Shown: positions 6,412-63,551, numbered from the stretch's first letter. The stretch is DNA of 64,000 bases from Synechococcales cyanobacterium (GCA_035285585.1 JAYKGU010000164.1:55609-119608), one strand, 5' to 3'. The notes: generated from the sequence alone by a model not told the origin. Numbers and translations are program-made.

Positions 6412-6517
6412 GGGTATTCGCTTGGCTGCTCGTGTTCAACATTCGTTTTCAACAGTCTCCTATGGTACCACCGAATCCGTTAAGTCGTCAAATAAAAATT
6501 AGCTAAGTGGAACTGCC

Positions 6518-6575
6518 TTGAAAAACGAAGGTTAGAAAACCGGGTGAGCGCCTCGGTTTTCTAACCTGAATTTAA
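6518..6575. repeat. Palindromic terminator-like repeat element, copy 1 (GGTTAGAAAACCGGG...CGGTTTTCTAACC)
   Basis: About 13-bp perfect stem flanked by TTGAAAAACGAAG on one side and TGAATTTAAATG on the other. The same element recurs at 17859-17938 (inverted orientation) and as a half copy at 57509-57540. Read on the minus strand it ends in a T-tract, downstream of the hesB/iscA-like gene. Confidence 0.7.
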
Positions 6576-6604
6576 ATGCGCTGACCTATTGTCAGGAAAT
6601 GCTG

Positions 6605-17685: not shown

Positions 17686-17858
17686 CATTTTCCCGACGCT
17701 GCCCTCGTGGGAACAGGGTGGGACTCATTGCTCCCCAGACCCCTCAGAAGTTAAAACTCTCGTGTTTTGAGGGAACGTTCGGGTTAAAACTGTGGGTAAG
17801 GTGAGCCGTTCCCACCTCCGGTGCTCAGGTGTTGAGTTTTTTGGAGCTAAGTAGGTCA

Positions 17859-17938
17859 GCACAATTAAATTCATGTTAGAAAACCGGGGGAGCGCCCCAG
17901 CGGGGCGCTCCCCCGGTTTTCTAACCTTCGTTTTTCAA
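17859..17938. repeat. Palindromic terminator-like repeat element, copy 2
   Basis: GTTAGAAAACCGGGGGAGCGCCCC/GGGGCGCTCCCCCGGTTTTCTAAC near-perfect hairpin followed by TTCGTTTTTCAA. The left flank GCACAATTAAATTCATGTTAGAAAACCGGGG is the exact reverse complement of 57509-57540. Confidence 0.75.
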
Positions 17939-18020
17939 TACAGTTCTACTTAAGAGAAACGATTGAAACCTGGGAAACCTAAAACAGTGTCTGGTGCAGT
18001 GAGTAGATTAGTAACCGACC

Positions 18021-43513: not shown

Positions 43514-45794
43514 TTAAAGGCCAAGCAACCCGGCAATCAGCGGCAGCAGCCGGTTCACCGCCTGCACAAATTTCGTCGCGTCCGGCAGGGTCTTGGCCAT
43601 GCGGTTGAGGGTGCGGCTGGCCCTGGCGAGGACGGATTGGCGGGCTTCGGGTTCGTCGGACTGGGCGGCAGTGGCGATCGCCCCCACCGCTTCTTCGGCA
43701 TCGGGCTTTTCTTCGGCGGGCAGGTTGGGGTCGGTTTGGATGGCCTCCAGCAGTTCCGTGAGGTAGGCTTTGAGGTCGTTACCCGCTGCGGTCGGAGGAA
43801 TCTGGTTGAGGGCGTTGGTGACGGTGCCGCTGATGTCTCCCAGGTTGAGGGCAGCACCGCTGGCGGTGAAGTCGCCGCCCACGTTGCCAATTTTGATATT
43901 GCGGCTGGAGTCGGAACTGTTGGTCATGGCTTTGCTCTCCGAATGGCTAGTTGAAAGACTTTCTGATGCGCTTTTTGCCAGACTGTCGGACTGGCTATGG
44001 GACTGGCTATCGACAGTATTCGTATTGGCATTGGTAATCGTCAGATTCGACAACACGCTGCCCAAATTGCTCACGGTGGTCAAAGTAATCGCCTTGAGAT
44101 CATCGGCATGACGCCGCTCCGCCTCCAGCAGCGCCGCCGCTTTGGCCGCCTCCAGCCTGGCGGTGTAAACCTCATCCCAGGTGCGCTCAATTTGCCCTTT
44201 GTCTGCATCCTCCGGCACGTCCAGGGTCACTTGCACGTCGTTGCCCACTTTTTCAATGGAGCGAATCGAGTCGGGGGAAATCGCCGGATTATCGTCCATC
44301 AACCGCTCAAAGGCGGCCCGAAAGGCGTCTGCATTCACCCCATCCCGTAGTAAAAGCTGCACCGTGGTCATGATTTTGCGATACAGCCTGGCAAAGTCCC
44401 CCGGCTGAAACACTTTCTCCGGGTCGTGGGGACGGCGTTCGCGACTGCCGCGGGCGTTGGCCTGCTCCAGCAGAAAGACGAACTGGCAGTCCACGTGATC
44501 CAGGACGGTAGTGTGATCAATGTTCCAACCCTGCAAGCAGGCTCCCGTCAGGTAGGCGTGGGTGAAGTCAGCGTCGATGCAGAGGGTTTCTGTGAGGTTG
44601 GCAGCTTTGAGGTTGGCGGCCTGGAGAGTCGCGCCACTGAGGTCGGCCCATTTGAAGTTGGCCCCCTCCAGGTTGGCACCGCTGAGGTTGGCCCCCCGCA
44701 GGTCGGCGTCGATGTAGGACTGCCGGTAGCCGTTGAGGGTGGTCAGGAGCTTCAGCACGTTGAGGTCGGCAAGGATGGTGTCGCCGGGGCGAGCGCGATC
44801 GAGCTTGAGGGCGTCTTTGAAGCAGGTGCGGGTGAGGGTGGCGGCGCGGAAGTTGGTGCTTTTGAGCTGAGCGTGGCTGAAGTTGGCGTCAGTGAGATCG
44901 GCTTTGTAGAAGGAGGTGCCGCCCAGGGCACCAAAGGCTAAGCCAAAGCTGCGGATCACAAAGAATTTAGGATCGCCCCTGAGCGCTCGTCTCGCGGAAT
45001 AGATGCCCAAAGCAAAGGACAAGACTGCGAATGCGAATGCGACTGCGAATGCGACTGCGAATGCGACTGCGCCTGCGACTGCGCCTGCGCCTGCGACTGC
45101 GACTGCGCCTGCGACTGCGCCTGCGACTGCGACTGCGACTGCGACTGCGACTGCGACTGCGCCTGCGACTGCGCCTGCGACTGCGCCTGCGACTGCGACT
45201 GCTAATGCGACTGCGCCTGCGACTGCGCCTGCGAATGCGACTGCGACTGCGACTGCGCCTGCGACTGCGCCTGCGACTGCGCCTGCGAATGCGACTGCGA
45301 CTGCGACTGCTAATGCGACTGCGACTGCGCCTGCGCCTGCGACTGCGACAATAAGAACTATAGTACTAATTGCGCGAGTTGTAAAGCCTTGCCGAGCAAT
45401 TGCAATGGGTGTAGCCAGAATTGCAATTATCAAAAAGACGGTCACCACGATTCCCGGAGTATATCCAGCAACATCCGTAACTTCAGCGCTGAAGAAGTAG
45501 CTCACTAGAATGGCCACAAAAAAGACGTTGAGGAGTGCTGCAACAGCATTCAACAATATTGACAGCAGTACCGAAAGGATGAATTGGATAATGACCCATC
45601 GCCTTTGCAGCCCCGCCTTCGCGCCGCTAAAGTTCACCCCCGTCAGCGTCGCCCCGGCAAAGTTCGCCCCGCGAATATCCGCCCCGCTCAGGTTGGCTCC
45701 GCTCAGGTTTTGTCCCTTGAAGTTGCCACCGCGCAGGTTTGCGCCGCTGAAATCGCGTTCTCCTTGGGCATAGCGGGTGAGGAGGGAGGGGGGC
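43514..45794 (-). CDS. Large pentapeptide-repeat membrane protein with an internal poly(Ala-Val/Ala-Gly) tract and a unique C-terminal domain
   Basis: Two blocks of pentapeptide repeats (ANLSGANL...) flank predicted TM helices and a ~110-aa (AVAGAV)n stretch. The 300-aa C-terminal region is Ser/Thr-rich with no recognised domain. Start is taken at the ATG at 45794 (MPPSLLTRYAQGERDFSGANL). The same frame stays open a further 500 bp upstream through tandem repeats to 46294. Confidence 0.65.
45030..45350. repeat. Hexanucleotide tandem repeat (GCGACT/GCGCCT/GCGAAT)n, about 320 bp, inside the CDS
   Basis: About 53 hexamer units, translating on the coding (minus) strand to (Ala-Val/Ala-Gly)n. Confidence 0.9.
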
Positions 45795-45836: not shown

Positions 45837-45896
45837 GGGTGACCAGCATCCCGTAGGGGCGATGCATTCGGTAGGGACGTTGTCGTCAGATGCAAA

Positions 45897-46085
45897 AGGT
45901 TCTGGCCGAATGCATCGCCCTTACCGCCGTGGATGAGGGGCAAAACGTTCTGGCCGAATGCATCGCCCTTACAACCGTGGGAGAGGGGCAAAAGGTTCTG
46001 GCCGAATGCATCGCCCTTACCGCCGTGGATGAGGGGCAAAACGTTCTGGCCGAATGCATCGCCCTTACCGCCGTGGGAGAGATTC
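45897..46085. repeat. 48-bp tandem repeat array (4 copies, two alternating variants)
   Basis: Unit GTTCTGGCCGAATGCATCGCCCTTACCGCCGTGGATGAGGGGCAAAAC, alternating with a ...ACAACCGTGGGAGAG... variant. It is open in both the minus frame (HGGKGDAFGQNVLPLI) and a plus frame. Confidence 0.85.
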
Positions 46086-46104: not shown

Positions 46105-46375
46105 ACCAAAGATAACCGATCCGCAAAAACGGGACCGTTTTCCTTAAACAAGAAATTTGCTGCTTTAATGGGGAGCGATCGCCCCTCAAACCCAACCCAT
46201 CTTGCCTTAAACAAGAAATTTGTTGCTTTAGTCGAGAATTATCTCGCTTTAAACCAGAAAATTGCTGCTTTAAAAGAGAGCGATCGCCCTCCAAACGAGA
46301 ACACCCTCACTTTGAACAAGACACTTCTTGCTTTGATCGAGAATCTTCCCGACTCAAACGAGATATTTATTGCTT
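46105..46375. repeat. Degenerate ~48-51-bp tandem repeat array (about 5 copies)
   Basis: Unit TTAAACAAGAAATTTGCTGCTTTAATGGGGAGCGATCGCCCCTCAAAC with HIP1 cores. The copies diverge progressively. Confidence 0.75.
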
Positions 46376-46485
46376 AAAAGGGGAGCGATCGCCTTTCAGA
46401 AAACCGTAGGGTGATCACTGCCGACCACAACCTTTTTGTGGTTCAGCGTGGTTCAGCGAGTCAACGGTGGCCACTGCCCACCCCC

Positions 46486-46733
46486 TGGTTGACTGACAAA
46501 ACTCTTGAAAGCCTGATTCTGCCGTAGTGGTACGACACAGCTAAAATGAGGCATTAGAGAAATTCGAGATGCCCGAATCGCCTAAATTGTGCCAAAAATC
46601 TATTGCACTACTTTAGCTGTGTCGTACCAGTAGGATGGGTTAGCGTCAGCGTAACCCATCGCAACCGTTACCGGTGTTGGGTTTCGCGTTGCTCAACACC
46701 AACCTACATCGGATCTTTTGTCAGTCAATCAGG
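46486..46733. mobile_element. MITE, copy A (family with CTGATTGACTGACAAAAG terminal inverted repeats), flanked by 9-bp target-site duplication GCCCACCCC; carries a nested second MITE
   Basis: Ends CTGGTTGACTGACAAAA ... TTTTGTCAGTCAATCAG. The flanking GCCCACCCC is directly repeated on both sides. The internal sequence is 95% identical, as reverse complement, to 63311-63458 except for a 102-bp insertion. Confidence 0.8.
46528..46629. mobile_element. Nested MITE (18-bp TIR TGGTACGACACAGCTAAA) inserted in MITE copy A with a 4-bp GTAG target duplication
   Basis: Perfect 18-bp inverted termini. The uninterrupted copy at 63311-63458 has a single CTAC/GTAG at the insertion point. Confidence 0.75.
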
Positions 46734-46956
46734 CCCACCCCACTTCATGAATAATCTAGAGTAGCGATATCCTGGAGGCAGTTTCGTTGACAACAATTGA
46801 GCAGGCAGTTATCTGCACCCAACTCGCTCAAGAGATCACCGGAATGTTTGTTCCCATATACCTTGTAAGGCTGGACGAACGCACTGGGAATCTGTTCATG
46901 TTGGCCGGGGACGAAATTGAGATTGAGATTCAGCCCAATGGACTTTGGGAATTTCT

Positions 46957-47181: not shown

Positions 47182-47408
47182 TTCGGTCAAGGCCACCATA
47201 GCCGCAGGTCGGGGATCGGCATAGACAGGGGGGAGGTTGATCCGCCGATTTTTTTCCAGGATAAAAATCGATGACAGTGATGGGGAAAGTGTGTTAACGG
47301 GCACACTAGCGGCAAATCATCATTGCGCCCGATGATTACGCTCGATGATTGCGCCCGAAGGTTGCACCCGACTATCGCACCCGACTATCGCACTGGAAAA
47401 TTAGCCTT

Positions 47409-50400
47409 ATGGAGATGGGATCTGAACAGCTCGCGATCGCCCGTCAGCACTACCAGGCCAATCGCTTTGCGATCGCCGCCCAGCTTTGCCAGGAATTGGT
47501 CCAGGCCGACGTTTCCCAGTCAGCGGCCTGGCTTCTGCTGGGGTTGTGCCTCTATCGGCAAAAGCAGTTCCAGGAAGCGGAACATTGCTACCGCACCTTA
47601 CTGACCCATCAGCCCGATCACGTCGATGCCCTCAGCAATTTAGGCGTCATGCTCAAAGCCCAGGGGCGGCTGGCGGAGGCGATTCAGGTCTACGGACGGG
47701 CGATCGCCCTGGATCCTCAATCGGTGGCTATTTTGAACAACCTGGGCAATGCCTGCTGGCAGCAGGGGCAGCTCGATACGGCTCGCCAGCATTTTCAGCA
47801 GGCCCTCCAGCTTGCCCCCGATGATCTGGAGGTGCGCCAGAACCTGGGCAACCTGCTGCGGGAATTGGGAGACTATGGCGGGGCGATCGCCCACTACCAG
47901 CACCTGCTGCACCACCGCCCCCAGGACAGCGCCGTGTTGAACAATTTGGGCAACGCCCTCCAGGGGCTAAGGCAGTTTCCCCAGGCAGTGGCCTGCTACC
48001 AGTTGGCTCTCCGGTCTGCCCCCCAGGCCGCCCACATCTGGAGCAACCTGGGGGCAGCGCTCCAGGAGCAGGGATCTGGGGAGGAGGCGATCGCCGCTTT
48101 TCGTCGAGCGCTCGACCTGAAGCCCACCTACGCCGACGCCTACTACAACCTGGGCAACCTGTGGCGCAACCAAGATCGGCTGGCTGAGGCAATCGTGGCT
48201 TACCGCAAGGCGATCGCCCTCCGCCCCCCGTTCGCCATGGCCTACAACAACCTGGGGCTGGCCCTCCACGACCAGGGGGACTATGTTGGGGCGATCGCCG
48301 CCTACAGCCAGGCCCTGGCCCTCGAACCCGATCACGCCGACGCCCACCTGAACCGGGGCCTCTCCCACCTGATGCGGGGCAATTTCCAGGACGGCTGGCG
48401 CGACTACGAGTGGCGCTGGCGCGTGGTCGGCCCCAACTTCAAACCGCCGCGCACCTTCTCCCAACCCCAGTGGGACGGCTCCGACCTGACCGGCCAGACC
48501 ATCCTGCTCCACCCCGAACAGGGCCTGGGCGACACCCTCCAGTTCATCCGCTTCGCCCCCCTGGTCAAGGCCAAGGGCGGCACCGTCCTCCTGGAATGCC
48601 CCACCCCCCTCCTGCGGCTGTTTCAGTCCATGACCGGCATTGACCACCTCATTCCGGCGGGCCAACCCCTCCCCGACTTCCAGGTTCACGCCCCCCTGAT
48701 GAGCCTCCCCCACCTCCTGGGCATCACCCTGGCCAATTTGCCCAGCCAGGTTCCTTACTTGAGGCTTGCCGAGCAGTTAGAACTGAGGGGTCAGGAGTCA
48801 GAATTCAGGAGTCAGGAGTCAGAATCCGAAATCCAAAATCTAAAATCCAAAATCCAAATTCAAGAGTCAGAATTCAGGAGCCAGGAGGCAGAATCCAAAG
48901 TCCAAAATCTAAAATCCAAAATCCAAATTCAAGAGTCAGAATTCAGGAGTCAAAATCCAAAATCCAAAATCCAAAATCCAAAATTCAGAAAGATTGGCAT
49001 CGTCTGGGCGGGAAGTAGTGGACATCGGGGCGATCGCCACCGTTCCACCACGCTCCAATACTTCACCCGACTTCTGGAGCTACCGGACATCCAGCTCTAC
49101 AGCCTGCAAAAAGGCGAGCGGGAAGAGGATTTGGCGGAACTGGGCGATCGCGCTCCCCGCATCCACAACCTCGCCCCCGACCTCCAGGACTTTGCCGACA
49201 CCGCCGCCGCCATTGCCCAACTGGATCTGGTGATCACCGTCGATACCTCCGTGGCCCATCTGGCAGGAGCCTTGGGTAAACCCGTCTGGATTTTGCTGGG
49301 AGCCACCCCCGACTGGCGCTGGCTGAGCGATCGCCCCGAAAGCCCCTGGTATCCCACCGCCCGCCTCTTCCGCCAACCCACCCCCGGCGACTGGAACACC
49401 CTTTTCGACCAAGTGCTCAGCACCCTCACCCACCCTCACCCATCTCCCCACCCACCCACCCACCCACCAACACACCCACCCACCAACGCACCCACCCACC
49501 AACGCACCCATCAACCCATCAACGCATCAACCCATCAACCCATCAACCCATCAACGCTCACCCTCGCCCAATCCGCCTACCGCCAAAAGCGCTACTCCGA
49601 AGCCGCCACCCTCTACGAACAGGCCCTCGCCGCCACCACCGACCCAGCCGAACGCCTCGACCTCCAGACAAACCTGGGAAACGCCTACCTCCACCAAAAA
49701 CAGTTTCAGCGGGCGATCGCCCAGTACCATACCGTGTTGGCCCATGATCCGCAGCAGGGCAAAGTGCGCAACAACCTGGGGGTGGCCCTGCGGCAACTGG
49801 GGCGGCATCCAGAGGCGATCGCCCATTACCATTTTCTCCTCCAACAGCGGCCCACCGCCGACGCCCACTACAACCTGGCCAATGCCCTGCGGGATGAGGG
49901 GCAGCTTGATGCCGCCATGCACCACTACCGCCAGGCCCTGGAGCGACAGCCCGACTACGCCAGCGCCTGGAACAACCTCGCCAGCGCGCTTAAAGATGCG
50001 GGACGTGTGGATGAGGCGATCGCCTGCTACCGCCACACCCTCACCCTCGTCCCCGATCACGCCAGTGCTCACTACAATCTGGGCTACGTTCTTCTGTTTA
50101 AAGGCGACCTGGCGGCGGGGTTTGCGGCCTACGAGTGGCGCTGGCGGGTGGCCAATTTCAGGGCACCCCGATGCTGTCCCCAGCCTCAGTGGGATGGCGC
50201 TGACCTCCAGGGAGCCACGATTCTGCTGCACACTGAGCAGGGCTTTGGCGATGCCATTCAATTCAGTCGGTACGTGCCTTTGGTAGCGCAGCGGGGCGGC
50301 AGGGTAATTGTCGAATGTCGGCCTCCCTTAAGGCGGCTGCTAAGCACCGTGCCGGGGGTGGCGCAGGTCGTCTCCCCGGATGAGCCACTGCCGCCCTTTG

Positions 50401-51050
50401 ATGTCCATGCGCCGCTGATGAGCCTGCCCCACATTCTGGGCACCACCCTGGCGACGGTTCCTGCCCCGATTCCCTATCTCTCACCCCCCGCCGCAGACCT
50501 TCCCCTCCCTGAACCGTCCGGGCCGCTTACCGTGGCAACGTCTCCCCCTCTAAAGGTCGGTTTGGTATGGGCAGGCAGCCCCACCCATAAAAATGACGCC
50601 CATCGCTCGTGCCCATTCATGTACATCTGGCGACTGCTGCGATCGCCCGGAATCATTTTCTACAGCCTGCAAAAGGGCGATCGCACCCGCGACCTGGCGG
50701 ACTACTGCGACCACCAGTGGCCGGTGATTGACCTGGGCGATCGCCTCCAGGACTTTGCTGACACGGCAGCGGCGATCGCCCAGCTCGACCTGGTGATTAC
50801 CGTCGATACGGCGGTGGCCCACCTGGCGGGGGCGCTGGGCAAACCCGTGTGGATTCTCCTTTCCCAGCCCTGCGACTGGCGCTGGCTGGGCGCTCGGCCC
50901 GATAGCCCCTGGTACCCGACCGCACGCCTTTTCCGTCAGGCCCGACCGGGGGATTGGGCGGAACTGCTGGGTCGGGTCCGGCAGGCGCTGATAGACGGTA
51001 GGTTGGCGTTGAGCGAAGCGAAACCCAACAGGCATAGCCCATCAATTTAA
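47409..51050 (+). CDS. Tandemly duplicated TPR-repeat / GT9-like (heptosyltransferase-fold) glycosyltransferase protein
   Basis: Two consecutive copies of about 8 TPR motifs, a WRDYEWRWR motif and a GT9-like domain (GLGDTLQFIRFAPL.. / GFGDAIQFSRYVPL.., then KIGIVWAGS.. / KVGLVWAGS.., ending DLVITVDTSVAHLAGALGKPVWILL). The copies are joined by a His/Pro/Thr-rich linker. The start may be the track ORF's 47349. Confidence 0.75.
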   Translation: MEMGSEQLAIARQHYQANRFAIAAQLCQELVQADVSQSAAWLLLGLCLYRQKQFQEAEHCYRTLLTHQPDHVDALSNLGVMLKAQGRLAEAIQVYGRAIALDPQSVAILNNLGNACWQQGQLDTARQHFQQALQLAPDDLEVRQNLGNLLRELGDYGGAIAHYQHLLHHRPQDSAVLNNLGNALQGLRQFPQAVACYQLALRSAPQAAHIWSNLGAALQEQGSGEEAIAAFRRALDLKPTYADAYYNLGNLWRNQDRLAEAIVAYRKAIALRPPFAMAYNNLGLALHDQGDYVGAIAAYSQALALEPDHADAHLNRGLSHLMRGNFQDGWRDYEWRWRVVGPNFKPPRTFSQPQWDGSDLTGQTILLHPEQGLGDTLQFIRFAPLVKAKGGTVLLECPTPLLRLFQSMTGIDHLIPAGQPLPDFQVHAPLMSLPHLLGITLANLPSQVPYLRLAEQLELRGQESEFRSQESESEIQNLKSKIQIQESEFRSQEAESKVQNLKSKIQIQESEFRSQNPKSKIQNPKFRKIGIVWAGSSGHRGDRHRSTTLQYFTRLLELPDIQLYSLQKGEREEDLAELGDRAPRIHNLAPDLQDFADTAAAIAQLDLVITVDTSVAHLAGALGKPVWILLGATPDWRWLSDRPESPWYPTARLFRQPTPGDWNTLFDQVLSTLTHPHPSPHPPTHPPTHPPTNAPTHQRTHQPINASTHQPINPSTLTLAQSAYRQKRYSEAATLYEQALAATTDPAERLDLQTNLGNAYLHQKQFQRAIAQYHTVLAHDPQQGKVRNNLGVALRQLGRHPEAIAHYHFLLQQRPTADAHYNLANALRDEGQLDAAMHHYRQALERQPDYASAWNNLASALKDAGRVDEAIACYRHTLTLVPDHASAHYNLGYVLLFKGDLAAGFAAYEWRWRVANFRAPRCCPQPQWDGADLQGATILLHTEQGFGDAIQFSRYVPLVAQRGGRVIVECRPPLRRLLSTVPGVAQVVSPDEPLPPFDVHAPLMSLPHILGTTLATVPAPIPYLSPPAADLPLPEPSGPLTVATSPPLKVGLVWAGSPTHKNDAHRSCPFMYIWRLLRSPGIIFYSLQKGDRTRDLADYCDHQWPVIDLGDRLQDFADTAAAIAQLDLVITVDTAVAHLAGALGKPVWILLSQPCDWRWLGARPDSPWYPTARLFRQARPGDWAELLGRVRQALIDGRLALSEAKPNRHSPSI
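48786..48992. repeat. STRR-like heptanucleotide repeat (AAAATCC/GAATTCA/GGAGTCA, about 30 units), in frame within the TPR-GT9 CDS
   Basis: Strict 7-nt periodicity over about 207 bp. It translates to a 7-aa periodic linker (ESEFRSQ / IQNLKSK) between the two lobes of the first GT9-like domain. Confidence 0.85.
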
Positions 51051-51090
51051 GCAGGTGTTGGGTTTCACGCTGTTCAACCCAACCTACGAT
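50993..51090. repeat. Palindromic hairpin element related to the MITE core (GTAGGTTGGCGTTGAGCGAAGCGAAACCCAACA ... GTGTTGGGTTTCACGCTGTTCAACCCAACCTAC)
   Basis: About 95-bp imperfect palindrome sharing the core with MITE copy C (57118-57262). It overlaps the last codons and stop of the TPR-GT9 gene and fills the gap to the convergent glmM. Confidence 0.7.
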
Positions 51091-52583
51091 TAGGCGGCGT
51101 AGCGCTGTACGGCAGTGACCAGGTAATCCGTCCAGTGCTCCACCAGGTCCAGGCTAGCGGCTTCTACCATGACGCGAATCACGGGTTCAGTGCCCGAAGC
51201 TCTCACCAGAACGCGACCGCGATCGCCCATCTCAGATTCGGCGTGGGCGATCGCCCGCTGGAGTTCCTCCGAATCCTGCCAGGTGGAGCGCCGCTGGGGG
51301 TCTTCCACCCGCACGTTCTTCAGCACCTGGGGATAGGTCTGGAAGCTCTGATCTACTAAATTCGCCAGGGAACCGCCCGAGCGGCGCACCAGCATCGCCA
51401 GGTGCAGGGCCGTCAGGGTACCGTCCCCCGAAATGCCGTAGTGGGGACAGAGGACGTGGCCCGACTGTTCGCCCCCCAGCATGGCTCCCCGGCGCACCAT
51501 CTCGGCGTGGACGTGCTGGTCGCCTACGGGGGTGCGCACGAATACGCCGCCCGCCGCTTCCCAGGCCCGCTCAAACCCCAGGTTGGCCATCACCGTAGTA
51601 ACGATGGCGTTGCCGGGGAGCTTGCCCGCCTGCCGCAGGGACTGGCCCCAGAGGTAAAGAATGTAGTCGCCGTCCACCACCCGGCCTTGACCATCCACCG
51701 CAATCACCCGATCGGCATCACCGTCGAAGGCAAAGCCCAGGTCGGCATTGTGGTTGAGCACGGCAGCCTGAAGGGGAGCCAGATGGGTGGAGCCGCAGTT
51801 GACATTGATACGATCGCCATCCGGTCGGTCATGCAGGCACAGCACCGTCGCCCCCATCCGCTCAAAGGCCACCGGAGCCAGGGCCACCGCCGCCCCCCAG
51901 GCCAGATCCAGCACTACTTTCATGCCCGCTAGATTGGCCCGCAGACCCACTGAGCGGCGGAGGGAAGCCAGGTAATCGTTGAGCAAGTCCGGGCGGGCGA
52001 TGTAGCGATGCCAGGCGGGTGCTAAAGCATGGGTGACGGGCGATCGCAGCCCTACCTCAATCTGGGCCTGCTGGTCTGCCCCCAGCTTGGTGCCATCGGC
52101 TCCAAAGAATTTAATGCCGTTGTCCTCCGGCGGGTTGTGGCTGGCGGAGATCATGATGCCGCCAATGGCTGCCGTACTATGGGTTAGATAGGCCACGGCG
52201 GGGGTGGGGCACAGCCCCAGGTTCCAGACCTCCAGGCCAGCGGCGGTGAGGCCAGCGGTGAGGGCGATCGCCAGCATATCGCTGGAGTTGCGGGAATCCT
52301 GGCCGATGATCACCGGCCTCCCAGGGGACGCGCCGTGACGCTGCCACACCTGCCCGGCCCAGAACCCAATTTGGGCGGCCAGGGGCGCGGTGAGTAGCTG
52401 ACCGGCTTTGCCGCGAATGCCATCGGTGCCAAAAAGCTTGTTAGGGGGCAGCGTCAGGGTGCCCCAGAGATCCAGCGGCAGCAAATCAACGGGGTCAAGG
52501 GAGCGGGTAGCGGTCGCATCCCCCAACCGTCGTGCCCCCTGAAAAGATATTGGTAGTAGAACCATGCTCGAATCACTCCACAC
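51090..52583 (-). CDS. glmM: Phosphoglucosamine mutase
   Basis: [13 protein letters not shown]-terminal motif, the active-site Ser loop [18 protein letters not shown], and Mg-binding DGDADR. The true start is probably downstream of the longest ORF's first Met. Confidence 0.9.
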
Positions 52584-55555: not shown

Positions 55556-57013
55556 TTAGGCCACCACCCAGGTATCTTTGCTGCCGCCGCCCTGGGAGGA
55601 ATTGACCACCAGCGATCCCCGCTTCAGGGCGACGCGGGTGAGGCCACCGGGGTTCACGTAAATCTCTTCGCCGTAGAGAATGTAGGGGCGCAGATCGACG
55701 TGGCAGCCCTCGAAGCGATCGCCAATCAGCGTGGGCACCCGCGACAGGCTAAGGGTGGGCTGGGCGATGTAGTTGCGGGGGGTGGCCCGGATGCGCTCGG
55801 CAAAGAGTTCCCGCTCTGCCTGGGTGGCCTGGGTGCCCACCAGCATGCCGTAGCCCCCCGACTCGTTAGCCGACTTCACCACCAGCTTGTCTAAATTGGC
55901 GAGGACGTGCGACTGCTGCTCTGGCTCCCAGCAGAGGTAGGTGGGCACGTTGGGAATGATCTGGTCTTCCCCCAGGTAGTAGCGGATCATGGCGGGCACG
56001 TAGGCGTAGATTACCTTGTCGTCGGCCACCCCGGTGCCCAGGGCGTTGGCGATCGCCACTCGTCCGGCCCGATACACTTCCATCAACCCCGGCACCCCCA
56101 GCAGCGAGTCGGGGCGAAACGCCTGGGGATCAATAAAGTCGTCGTCAATGCGGCGATACACCACGTCCACCCGTTCCAGCCCCTTGGTGGTGCGCATCTT
56201 CAGATAGCCGTCCGCCACCACCAGATCCCGGCCTTCCACCAGCTCAACCCCCATCTGCTGCGCCAGGAAAGAGTGCTCGAAGTAGGCCGAATTGTAGATG
56301 CCGGGGGTGAGCACCACCACGGTGGGGTCGGGCAGGGTAGGGGGAGTCAGGTTCAGCAGCGTCTCCAGCAGCTGGCTGGCGTAATCGTCTACCGCCTGAA
56401 TGCTCATGGAGTTAAAGAGCTGGGGAAAGGTGCTCTTCATCACGCGGCGGTTTTCCAGCACGTAGGACACCCCCGATGGGCAGCGGAGATTGTCTTCCAG
56501 GACGTACCACTGGCCGTCGCGATCGCGCACCAGGTCGGTGCCGGTGATGTGGCACCAGATCTGCTGGGGCGGCACCAGCTCCAGGCAGGGCTTGTGAAAC
56601 CCTGACGCCGAAAAAATCAGCTCTGCCGGAATCACCCTGTCCTGGAGGATTTTTTGTGGGCCGTAAATGTCATTCAAAAACAGGTTGAGAGCATGAATTC
56701 GCTGCTTCAGCCCCTGCTCCAGCCATCTCCATTCGTGGGTAGACACAATGCGAGGCACGATATCGAAGGGCAGAATGCGCTCGGTCCCCTGGTTGTCGCT
56801 GTACACGTTAAACGTGACCCCCACCCGATAGAGGGCATTCTGCGCCGCCTGCTTACGCTGCTGTAAATCTTCTACCGAAAGCGAACTCAGCCGCTCGATT
56901 AACAGCGCTGCCTCTGGCCGGGGCTGACCGGGTGCCTCAAATAGCTCATCGTAAAAGTGCTCTGGGTCGTATTCGTTAAGCTGCACAGGACTCGACTGCC
57001 TACTTCTTCGCAA
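55556..57013 (-). CDS. Circularly permuted type-2 ATP-grasp protein (DUF404/DUF407)
   Basis: 485 aa with blocks characteristic of the permuted ATP-grasp amidoligase family ([43 protein letters not shown]). Confidence 0.85.
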
Positions 57014-57117
57014 TGGGTCTCAATTTGACTAATCATTAGAGGCTGGAGAACCCGCAAGCTGTAAAATTCGCTACAACTTAATTTTCGCTTTAGATTTGCC
57101 CTGGCCAGGGCTGTTGG

Positions 57118-57262
57118 CCTGATTGACTGACAAAAGTTTCAAATGTAGGTTGGCGTTGAGCGAAGCGAAACCCAACACCAGCGAGGGTTATGTTGGGTTT
57201 CGCTAGCGCTCTACCCAACCTACAGCAGAATAAGGGTTTCAAGAATTTTGTCAGTCAATCAG
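57118..57262. mobile_element. MITE, copy C, flanked by 9-bp target-site duplication GCTGTTGGC
   Basis: CTGATTGACTGACAAAAG ... AATTTTGTCAGTCAATCAG termini with GCTGTTGGC directly repeated on both flanks. The internal palindromic core is shared with the 50993-51090 element. Confidence 0.8.
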
Positions 57263-57282
57263 GCTGTTGGCCTTAAGGTTCC

Positions 57283-57508: not shown

Positions 57509-57540
57509 CCCCGGTTTTCTAACATGAATTTAATTGTGCC
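57509..57540. repeat. Half copy of the palindromic terminator-like element (CCCCGGTTTTCTAACATGAATTTAATTGTGCC)
   Basis: Exact 31-nt reverse-complement match to the left arm and flank of copy 2 (17859-17890). Confidence 0.75.
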
Positions 57541-57789
57541 AACCTATTTATTAATAAGTAGTTAAACAAAATTATTTGCTTGGGTGCGTGCATCCCCGCC
57601 GGGAGCACATACACCCACAAGTTGCAGTTAATTGTGCTCAAGCACCTAGATCAAATAAAAAAGGATATCAACTTAAGTCGAGACAGTCGGGCGCGGCGCA
57701 CCCCACTGTCTCGCTAATTTTATGATTTGCCAAAAATTAAAGCGATCGCCCAGGGGTATCTGGCAAATGGCGATCGCCCAACGTTTGCC

Positions 57790-60429: not shown

Positions 60430-61950
60430 CGTTTCCCTCCCATGTAATACAGCCTGGAATGCATCCGCCCCAGGACAGATTAACTTGACATCCTCTCCCA
60501 GCAACCCTAACGGGTGTGCAGGGAGATTCCCTGGGTCGCCCCAAAGATTTCCTGCTTCAACAGGTGCCAGCTAGACTGAGTGACCCCAGTCCCCGCCGCA
60601 TCCCCTCCACAGGCATTTTCAACCACCCGTTGCCCACGGGCAGATATGACTTGCCCACTAGCCACATCACGGGGCTTAATTGACCCGCAGTTGTGGCAGT
60701 GGTGAATGCGGGTTGAGAGGTCTTTACGCGCCTCCGCCCCACAATCTGGACACTCTTGAGAAGTGCCCCGTGCATCAACCTTGCCGTAATGCACATCCCG
60801 CTTCCAGCACACCCACGGCAGAACCTGGTTCACAAATTGGCCCAATCCAGCATCAAGGGTATGCTTGCCCAACATCCCTTTGGCCATGATGCGGAAGTCC
60901 AAATCTTCCACAAACACCATCCCAGCGCCATCACAGAGATGATGAGCTAATTTGAAATGCCAGTCTTTGCGGGTATCGGCAATGCGTTGATAAACTCTCG
61001 CAATCTTCTTCTGGAGTTTTAGCCAGTTAGCAGACCCCTTCTGCTTATTCTTCAATCTGCGTTGCAGCAATTTCAGCTTGCGGTGTAGTTCGTTGAAAAA
61101 GCGGGGACGCTTGACCTGTTCTCCATCAGAAGTTGAGAGAAAGTATTCCAGTCCGACATCAATCCCGACTGGGTGCCCATGAGGAGCCACAGCGGGGATA
61201 TCAACATCGGCCTGAAGGCTAAGCATGACGAAGTACCCGGATGCTTTACGCACAATCCGGGCTTGTTTCGCCTGGAATATTTCAGGTATTTCCCGCGACC
61301 AGCGCACCTTGACCAACCCCAATTGAGGCAACTTGATGCCCTCGGCAGACACGCAATTTTTGAGCATCTGGGGAAAGACGAAGCTACGCATCCGGTTCGG
61401 TTTCTTGAACCGGGGGAATCCTGAACGCTTCAACCGCCACGACTCCCAAGCTGCTTCCAGGTTTCGGATTACCTGTTGAAGCACCTGAGCATTGACGGTC
61501 TTTAACCGGGTGAATTCAGTCTTTGCCGCAGTCAGCGACTTGCACTGACGCGCATAGCTGGGGAATGGCGCATCTGCTGGCAAGATAAACTCTTGCCGAA
61601 TTGAACACGCATTCACTGGAGACTTGCGAGAATCTAGCCAGTCCTTGCGTTCCCGCAGGGCAAAGTTCCAGACATTGCGGCACACGTCCAGAATGTTCTC
61701 AATCTCCGAAACCTGCTCAGCGGTTGGCTCTAACTTGAATTCCCACGTCATGTTTAGCATCAAACCATTATAGCCTAAGAAGCAGATATTCATTTCTTAG
61801 GTTCGGCCAATTTACTCCCTCCGGTCGTGCGTCGCTTCACCACCCCCCAAGCCTTCGGCTATGGGCGGAGCACTGCGACGAATCTTGGTAGATTTCTCTT
61901 CAGGATGGCACAGGATCTTTCGGGTCGCTAGTCTCTGATGAGCATCCTGC
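60430..61950 (-). mobile_element. IS200/IS605-family insertion element carrying only tnpB (no tnpA)
   Basis: A single TnpB ORF lies between the stop of the nitronate monooxygenase gene and the start of the patatin gene. Boundaries are approximate and were not defined by hairpins. Confidence 0.5.
60507..61751 (-). CDS. tnpB: RNA-guided endonuclease TnpB (IS605 OrfB family transposase accessory protein)
   Basis: N-terminus MTWEFKLEPTAEQ (YRLYPT-like). Central RuvC-I block GIDVGLEYFLSTSDGE. C-terminal zinc finger CPDCGAEARKDLSTRIHHCHNCG and RuvC-III. Confidence 0.85.
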   Translation of the reverse strand: MTWEFKLEPTAEQVSEIENILDVCRNVWNFALRERKDWLDSRKSPVNACSIRQEFILPADAPFPSYARQCKSLTAAKTEFTRLKTVNAQVLQQVIRNLEAAWESWRLKRSGFPRFKKPNRMRSFVFPQMLKNCVSAEGIKLPQLGLVKVRWSREIPEIFQAKQARIVRKASGYFVMLSLQADVDIPAVAPHGHPVGIDVGLEYFLSTSDGEQVKRPRFFNELHRKLKLLQRRLKNKQKGSANWLKLQKKIARVYQRIADTRKDWHFKLAHHLCDGAGMVFVEDLDFRIMAKGMLGKHTLDAGLGQFVNQVLPWVCWKRDVHYGKVDARGTSQECPDCGAEARKDLSTRIHHCHNCGSIKPRDVASGQVISARGQRVVENACGGDAAGTGVTQSSWHLLKQEIFGATQGISLHTR

Positions 61951-63310: not shown

Positions 63311-63458
63311 GTCGTTTGGCTGATTGACTGACAAAAGATCCGATGTAGGTTGGTGTTGAGCAACGCGAAACCCAACACCGGTAACAGTTGCGATGGGTTA
63401 CGCTGACGCTAACCCATCCTACGGCAGAATCAAGCTTTCAAGAATTTTGTCAGTCAGT
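63311..63458. mobile_element. MITE, copy D (uninterrupted, inverted relative to copy A)
   Basis: CTGATTGACTGACAAAAG...AATTTTGTCAGTCAGTCGAG. About 95% identical to the reverse complement of copy A minus its nested insertion. Confidence 0.8.
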
Positions 63459-63551
63459 CGAGAATTCAGTAGTATATTTATACTGGACATTGGGCCAGGG
63501 AGTAGAGCAAAATGGGGCAATGAACGCTGCATAAGGTGGCCTGGAGGTTTG

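Follow-up and report, generated by a model that had tools for sequence, protein, structure and literature searches.

A layered piece of mobile DNA has been dissected here in a cyanobacterial MAG: a doublet of REP hairpins lies inside a MITE of IS4 type, this MITE is interrupted by another one of IS630 type, and the parent ISs of both have been identified. The analysis started from a 64,000-nt stretch of DNA of a Synechococcales cyanobacterium, taken as a whole and hereafter called the window (57% GC, 119 HIP1 sites), and was extended to loci of other genomes, designated by L and a number. We read the whole as an IS4-framed MITE with a REP doublet as cargo that was hit later by an IS630-type MITE, and give this reading a probability of about 0.85.

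The preliminary description of the window, made from the sequence alone, had proposed a MITE family with common termini and three copies, which was confirmed by sequence and pattern searches (Table 1). The places it gave were right, but copy A was shifted by one position and copy C starts at 63320 rather than 63311, the first nine nucleotides being flank. Three features had escaped it, namely that the palindrome inside the copies is a separate REP doublet, that the nested element occupies a preferred motif, and that copy C is damaged. MITE copies are small (142-144 bp), non-coding and dispersed, with three of them in the 64-kb window and many others in different genomes; all are intergenic, copy B being placed 105 bp upstream of an ATP-grasp gene (55556-57013, minus strand). 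The outer TIR of 17-18 nt reads CTGATTGACTGACAAAAG, and as a pattern it has five matches in the window at three mismatches or fewer against 0.02 expected by chance, those of copy A lying at 46485-46502 (two mismatches) and 46715-46732 (none). Perfect 9-bp target-site duplications (TSDs), reported earlier for two copies, do flank two of the three, A and B. The degenerate right terminus of copy C is GTCAGTCAGTCGAG, at ~63461, and no TSD was found around this copy, its flanks agreeing at 3 of 9 positions; it is probably immobile. With the nested element removed, A and C are 94% identical and B shares 80-83% with either; over 103 nt the identity of A and C reaches 99%, yet their flanks are unrelated. 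C has neither a right terminus nor a TSD, B is diverged by ~20%, and some of the window copies are old or dead. Comparison of the window with the fetched genomes gave no common locus, only similarity of MITE to MITE; the nearest relative of the flanking ATP-grasp gene is 84% identical, and the databases contain no genome of a close relative.

Table 1. Mobile and repeated features of the window, followed by the 5′ flanks of insertion sites of the IS630-like element, oriented on CTAC
Feature	Position	Strand	Remarks
MITE copy A	46485-46732	-	248 bp with the nested element, 142 bp without; orientation opposite to B and C
TSD of copy A	46476-46484 (left), 46733-46741 (right)		GCCCACCCC; 9/9 match
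Nested MITE	46528-46629		102 bp; perfect 18-nt TIRs TGGTACGACACAGCTAAA
GTAG target duplication	46524-46527 and 46630-46633		second copy is the GTAG tag of REP unit 46630-46660
REP doublet in copy A	46630-46707		equivalent to that of copy B
REP doublet without TIRs	50998-51087		two inverted GTAG-tagged hairpins, 25-nt spacer
MITE copy B	57119-57262	+	144 bp
TSD of copy B	57110-57118 and 57263-57271		GCTGTTGGC; perfect, 9 bp
REP doublet in copy B	57145-57223		units 57145-57177 (+) and 57191-57223 (-)
MITE copy C	63320-63461 (end approximate)	+	left TIR intact; right terminus degenerate; nested-element site empty
REP doublet in copy C	63345-63422		equivalent to that of copy B
5′ flank, window			TAACCCATC
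5′ flank, L168			TAACCCACG
5′ flank, L141			TAACACATC
5′ flank, L162			TAACGCACC
5′ flank, L177 (two sites)			TAACACACC
5′ flank, L157			TATCCCACC
5′ flank, L180			GCTCAAC
5′ flank, L171			motif not matched

The source of the outer ends was traced by a scan with the 17-mer CTGATTGACTGACAAAA over one genome per prokaryotic species, which yielded at least 117 loci; plus- and minus-strand TIR matches were paired to define elements, and the counts concern the matches listed. Among the matches listed, the sources are overwhelmingly filamentous cyanobacteria (Leptolyngbyaceae, Nodosilinea, Elainella, Pseudanabaena, Moorena and others) with Chloroflexota as a substantial minority, and the TIR pairs delimit at least 52 short elements (94-372 bp) and at least 11 elements of 1288-1367 bp. 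That the MITE termini are transposon ends, as had been supposed, is borne out by their identity over 17-18 nt with the ends of an IS4-family IS of ~1.32 kb, found in at least 11 full-length examples coding for IS4-type transposase in other cyanobacteria, among which it is widespread; essentially the TIR alone is common to IS and MITE. Among the matches listed, TSDs of the 52 short elements are perfect (9/9) in 20, agree at 8/9 in 10 more and at 7/9 in 4, while 9-mers placed 30 nt farther outward as a control matched at 6/9 at most. The preliminary description had put itself at stake on whether the apparent TSDs would recur at other copies; 9-bp TSDs are reproduced elsewhere, and thus this ground for dismissing it falls away. 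Perfect 9-bp TSDs also enclose three of the full-length ISs among the matches listed (L045, L106 of Leptolyngbya PCC 7375, and L109).

The IS at L045, from Nodosilinea nodulosa PCC 7104, measures 1323 bp with TSD GCTTGATAC and contains a single ORF of 382 aa. Its product matches Pfam DDE_Tnp_1 (3.5e-7; 30.6 bits, above the cutoff of 23), and its best NCBIfam match is transpos_IS4_2 (2.5e-32; 112 bits, below the cutoff of 152). The alignment with IS10 transposase of R100 is collinear, although weak (19% identity, pairwise E=0.003), and three catalytic motifs are in register with those of IS10 (LDTS/VDWS, ADRGF/SDAGF, IEETF/IEETF); the Y-2-R-3-E-6-K motif reads Y-GL-R-FDI-E-ETFLDD-Q, with Q in place of K. 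On plasmid pSYSM of Synechocystis 6803 there is a relative that has the same TIR and is 74% identical in amino acids, and another occurs in Acaryochloris. No match to the IS4-type transposase was found among PDB sequences. L112 represents a 372-bp internal-deletion derivative of the IS4-family IS; therefore, short derivatives of this IS do arise. In the 64-kb window itself neither IS4-family nor IS630-family transposase was found, tblastn at E<=1 returning noise only. In a TIR scan of viral contigs five single matches appeared, which were judged to be chance.

Elsewhere the same TIRs frame unrelated palindromic cargos, for instance of CCCTCACCCCCAACCCCTCTCCC type in cyanobacteria and of CCGCGGAGAACGCGGAG type in Chloroflexota, with 9-bp TSDs kept. 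The 17-nt signature thus marks a MITE/IS superfamily across filamentous cyanobacteria and Chloroflexota, and this distribution of matching ends indicates its cross-phylum spread; no full-length IS from Chloroflexota was found among the matches listed. In Anaerolineae and Caldilineales of the latter phylum, unrelated cargos within the IS10-like TIR and perfect 9-bp TSDs are seen at L044 (6746-6972), L072 (730-1025) and L111 (2621-2844 and 4546-4770).

The cargo of the window copies has an origin of its own. Its layout is a TIR, ~8 nt, a unit GTAGGTTGG..GAAACCCAAC-A, a spacer, the inverse unit ending in CCTAC, ~22 nt and the second TIR, and this asymmetric arrangement is common to the window copies and about ten elements elsewhere (L019, L020, L059, L067, L071, L079, L098, L101 and L122). 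The hairpin has the form GTAGGTTGGG...CCCAAC. In an alignment of 24 REP units, each of which consists of a GTAG tag and a hairpin, GTAGG is invariant and 92% of the stem cells are paired, with covariation at two positions of the stem (UA16/AU5/GC2/CG1 and GC19/CG4/UG1); controls with shuffled or slid partners all scored far lower. A related palindromic core, noticed previously, is indeed present at 50998-51087; it is devoid of TIRs and occupies the whole interval from the stop of one gene to that of its convergent neighbour (ORF ends at 51050 and 51090), and a lone single REP unit resides in L045 of N. nodulosa. Because it exists without TIRs in the window and as a lone REP in N. nodulosa, the internal "core" is a separate REPIN-like repeat class that is carried as cargo rather than derived from the IS. 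The doublet without TIRs supplies ~17 last codons and the stop (51048-51050) of a 1233-aa TPR/glycosyltransferase-9 ORF (47349-51050) and ends 2 nt ahead of the stop codon of the phosphoglucomutase gene that converges on it (51090-52583). That it might be a decayed MITE was considered and found unlikely, given that no subterminal MITE sequence lies beside it and that it fits exactly between the two stops.

RAYT homologues were found with E. coli RayT as a probe in Kovacikia minuta (Leptolyngbyaceae; L183, 1501-2013), in Gloeocapsa PCC 7428 and on a Chloroflexota plasmid, and all three have inverted GTAG-tagged REPs with a GTAGG head on either side. These read GTAGGATGCGTTA...TAACGCATC in the two cyanobacteria and form GTAGGGTGCGC... 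doublets on the Chloroflexota plasmid, the cyanobacterial ones being closer in sequence to the window REPs; GTAGGATGGGTTAGCGTCAGCGTAACCCATC, which is the second unit in both A and C, falls in the same class as them. A RAYT may act on the REPs described here. A tblastn search with E. coli RayT detected no RAYT in the window or in fetched loci of MITE-bearing genomes. REPs typically number more than 100 per genome; in the DNA sampled here, which comprises loci rather than whole genomes, few units stand apart from these TIRs. It may be, then, that the doublet is propagated chiefly as cargo of the MITE. In three further REP-carrying MITEs (L071, 6874-7041; L098, 1720-1933; L101, 3808-3971) additional small palindromic insertions are found in or beside the REP arms, so that nesting of repeat in repeat recurs among elements of this kind.

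The interruption of copy A had been ascribed to a different, 102-bp element with perfect 18-bp TIRs and a GTAG duplication, with the empty site preserved in copy C. All of this proved correct: the element lies within copy A, its 18-nt TIR has only two matches in the window against 0.04 expected, and copy C contains the uninterrupted sequence CCGTAGGATGG. It is truly a second MITE, since further copies of the type exist in L141 (102 bp) and L177 (104 bp) and its TIRs delimit a parent IS of 1251 bp, present in L157 (916-2166) and L168 (989-2239). The parent contains two overlapping ORFs, one with an HTH_32 domain (1e-14) and one with DDE_3 (8e-16), and the latter scores 121.6 bits against NCBIfam transpos_IS630 (cutoff 100). 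A metagenome scan with the nested TIR mostly returned chance coding matches besides true relatives; homologue look-ups added L171, L177 (the 104-bp MITE and a full IS) and L178-L180, with a sister IS in L172; blastn of the nested element and of the IS630-like IS against plasmids gave no match. Between the L157 and L168 copies the right flank is identical (CTACGTTTAGTGGTCATCGG...) and the left flanks differ, which suggests IS-mediated rearrangement or adjacent deletion in one of these two metagenomic genomes.

All 18 flanks of nine complete copies conform to (C/G)TA(C/G), TA being found in every one, and a perfect 4-bp repeat encloses 7 of the 9, the exceptions being L171 and L178. The flanking base belongs to the target and not to the element, because one and the same IS end borders CTAC in L157 and GTAG in L127 and in the window. 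A 4-bp duplication containing the TA of the family is the most economical reading. Duplication of TA only, with the adjacent C or G contributed by the element, was rejected in view of the CTAC versus GTAG flanks and of the 4-mers being equal in 7/9, although L171 and L178 keep it alive.

When insertion sites were oriented on CTAC and their 5′ flanks compared (Table 1), a consensus TAACnCAyS emerged in this small sample of ~9 sites, with 6 of the 9 matching it and 2 more nearly so. In the window, in L162 and at both sites of L177 the motif TAACnCAyS|CTAC is the 3′ stem and tag of a GTAG REP, and on this reading the nesting in copy A would reflect target preference, not chance. Since the motif also lies within a gene in L157, outside hairpins, the preference of the IS630-like element appears from the flanks compared to be for sequence and not demonstrably for structure; REPs appear to supply this sequence in many copies.

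Each of the other explanations considered accounts for a part of these observations. The copies could be REPINs moved by a RAYT of the HUH/Y1 type, the outer CTGATTGAC... repeats then being part of a longer palindrome rather than TIRs. Such an origin would fit the core, with its GTAG tag, its hairpin and its arrangement as an inverted doublet, and likewise the REPs of the same class around RAYT genes of other cyanobacteria and the doublet that stands in the window without TIRs. Against it, the outer repeats reproduce exactly the termini of an IS of the IS4 family, the same TIRs surround unrelated cargos elsewhere with 9-bp TSDs still present, and copies in the window have such TSDs too. Duplications of 9 bp are made by DDE transposases, and not by single-strand transposition of IS200/RAYT type. 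A history with RAYT only is already disfavoured, and we regard it as very improbable. The palindromes might alternatively be retained by host selection as terminators, mRNA stabilisers or protein-binding sites, their repetition meaning function and not mobility. Predicted single-stranded DNA folds are indeed very stable, with z-scores of -12.9 for copy B (-49.6 kcal/mol), -6.5 for the doublet without TIRs and, for the nested MITE, -7.8; moreover, all copies are intergenic, the stem is kept by compensatory changes, and the doublet without TIRs lies exactly where a bidirectional terminator between convergent genes would. Nevertheless, Rfam at the gathering threshold has no match in the whole window, the surroundings of copies A and B, scanned for promoters and terminators, show no signal of a promoter or T-tract terminator that exceeds the level expected from shuffled sequence, and the TSDs, TIRs and parent ISs account for the dispersal without any function. 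This explanation is improbable, and exaptation of individual copies would be secondary.

The most serious alternative takes the copies for fossil MITEs, relics that are no longer mobile in this genome, with the similarity of A and C resulting from a single old event or a segmental duplication. It agrees with the lack of transposase in the 64-kb window, with the degenerate terminus and missing TSD of copy C and with the 17-20% divergence of copy B; on the other hand, the TIRs of A and B are still intact and their TSDs perfect, the near-identical A and C sit in unrelated surroundings, and A has gained a nested insertion with perfect TIRs. Timing is the sole difference between this possibility, which we consider unlikely though not negligible, and the reading preferred here, an IS4-framed MITE with REP cargo and a later IS630-type insertion.

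The preferred reading would imply the following course of events. Acting in trans, an IS10-like transposase would bind to the pair of TIRs, the only parts of the 142-bp unit relevant to it, and excise or copy this unit, which would then insert with a 9-bp duplication. Copies A and B are likely to have been moved in this way, and the A/C lineage, judging by 99% identity over 103 nt, would be the most recent mover; the family may still be active in this genome. The 102-bp MITE would subsequently have been inserted into copy A by an IS630-like transposase, whose IS would enter (C/G)TA(C/G), usually with a 4-bp duplication, and prefer TAACnCAyS|CTAC. A broader and quite tentative proposal, rather unlikely when taken as a whole, is that the outer chimera can be moved both by an IS10-like DDE enzyme through the TIRs and by a RAYT of HUH type through the REP doublet, and that the IS630-family IS and its MITEs evolved specificity for the REP tail with REPs as safe landing sites. 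The TIR frames other palindromic families as well, in Chloroflexota among others, and if this chimera proposal were true, the IS would be a general carrier of hairpin repeats across phyla.

Other repeated sequences are present in the window. A different dispersed palindromic family with the module TAGGTCAGCnCAATTAAATTCATGTTAGAAAACCGGGG occupies 6504-6590, 17848-17952 and 57509-57550; the second of these copies has 51-nt inverted arms, 75% complementary and 3 nt apart, and one copy of the family lies 250 bp from MITE copy B. Dense short tandem repeats are found upstream of copy A and in the TPR ORF (44959-45407, 45892-46081, 46143-46398, 48770-48997 and 49421-49528), with periods of 12/18 nt, 48 nt, 42/63 nt and 7/14 nt (GGATTTT-type) or of CACC-rich composition. 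An ORF of 428 aa on the minus strand (60507-61793) is TnpB-like, having OrfB_IS605, Cas12f1-like TNB and HTH_OrfB_IS605 domains, and is an element of IS605/IS1341 type, situated between genes for patatin and NMO; no Y1 TnpA was observed next to it.

This is an ordinary kind of mobile DNA. MITEs of the IS4 and IS630 families, nested MITEs, REP doublets in longer palindromes and REP-targeting ISs were all known as kinds, while the strings of the outer TIR and of the REP are absent from the searchable literature. Modestly beyond what was known are an IS10-like TIR under which different hairpin families are carried in two phyla, and also an element of the IS630 family that is tuned to the tail of REPs. 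If the preference for the REP tail is true, a case from the IS630 family joins the short list of REP-targeting ISs, and it would help to explain why repeats accumulate within one another in the genomes of cyanobacteria. Elements of this sort cause assembly breaks and spurious small ORFs in practice, and they can alter gene ends, as illustrated by the stop codon that the doublet without TIRs provides to the 1233-aa ORF.

Insertion sequences that target REPs are known, for example, IS1397/ISKpn1 and ISPpu9/10. The element described here resembles them by insertion at a fixed position of the REP, as found in the window, at L162 and at two sites of L177, and differs in belonging to the IS630 family and in that its motif occurs outside hairpins as well. 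The cargo has the features of GTAG REPs and REPINs (PMC2817692; Bertels and Rainey, 2011, PMC3116915; PMC3733652), that is, the GTAG head, the imperfect hairpin, the inverted pair with a short spacer and compensatory changes in the stem. A Coxiella REP, GTAGGTTGGGCTGAGCTTGCGAAGCCCAAC, is nearly identical to that of the window (Nunvar, 2010; PMC2817692, Table 1), REPs of the GTAG type have been reported from Cyanobacteria and Chloroflexi, and in A. variabilis dimers of the GTAG-15 REP lie inside longer palindromes (Di Nocera, 2013; PMC3733652). In contrast to known REPs and REPINs, the enclosing palindrome here is formed by the two TIRs of an identified IS of DDE type and is bordered by 9-bp TSDs. 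The parent of the outer MITE is close in organization to the IS10 subgroup of the IS4 family, described as 1200-1350 bp long with 5′-CT ends and 9-bp direct repeats (De Palmenaer et al., PMC2266710, Table 1): it has 1323 bp, CTGATT... ends and a 9-bp TSD. It departs from this subgroup in its 19% identity with IS10 transposase, in Q for K in the YREK motif and in an IS4_2 score below the cutoff. Judged by description, in the form summarised in PMC3184786, the closest described cyanobacterial example is the IS4-family-derived MITE Nezha with its IS, ISNpu3 (Zhou et al., 2008). According to that summary, Nezha is likewise small (~130-170 bp) and non-coding, has TIRs in common with a full-length IS and flanking direct repeats, forms a stable hairpin in a cyanobacterial host, and is thought likely to be mobilised in trans. 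Set beside that description, the family analysed here is distinguished by its TIR CTGATTGACTGACAAAAG, by a TSD of 9 bp and by a REP doublet cargo that does not derive from the IS.
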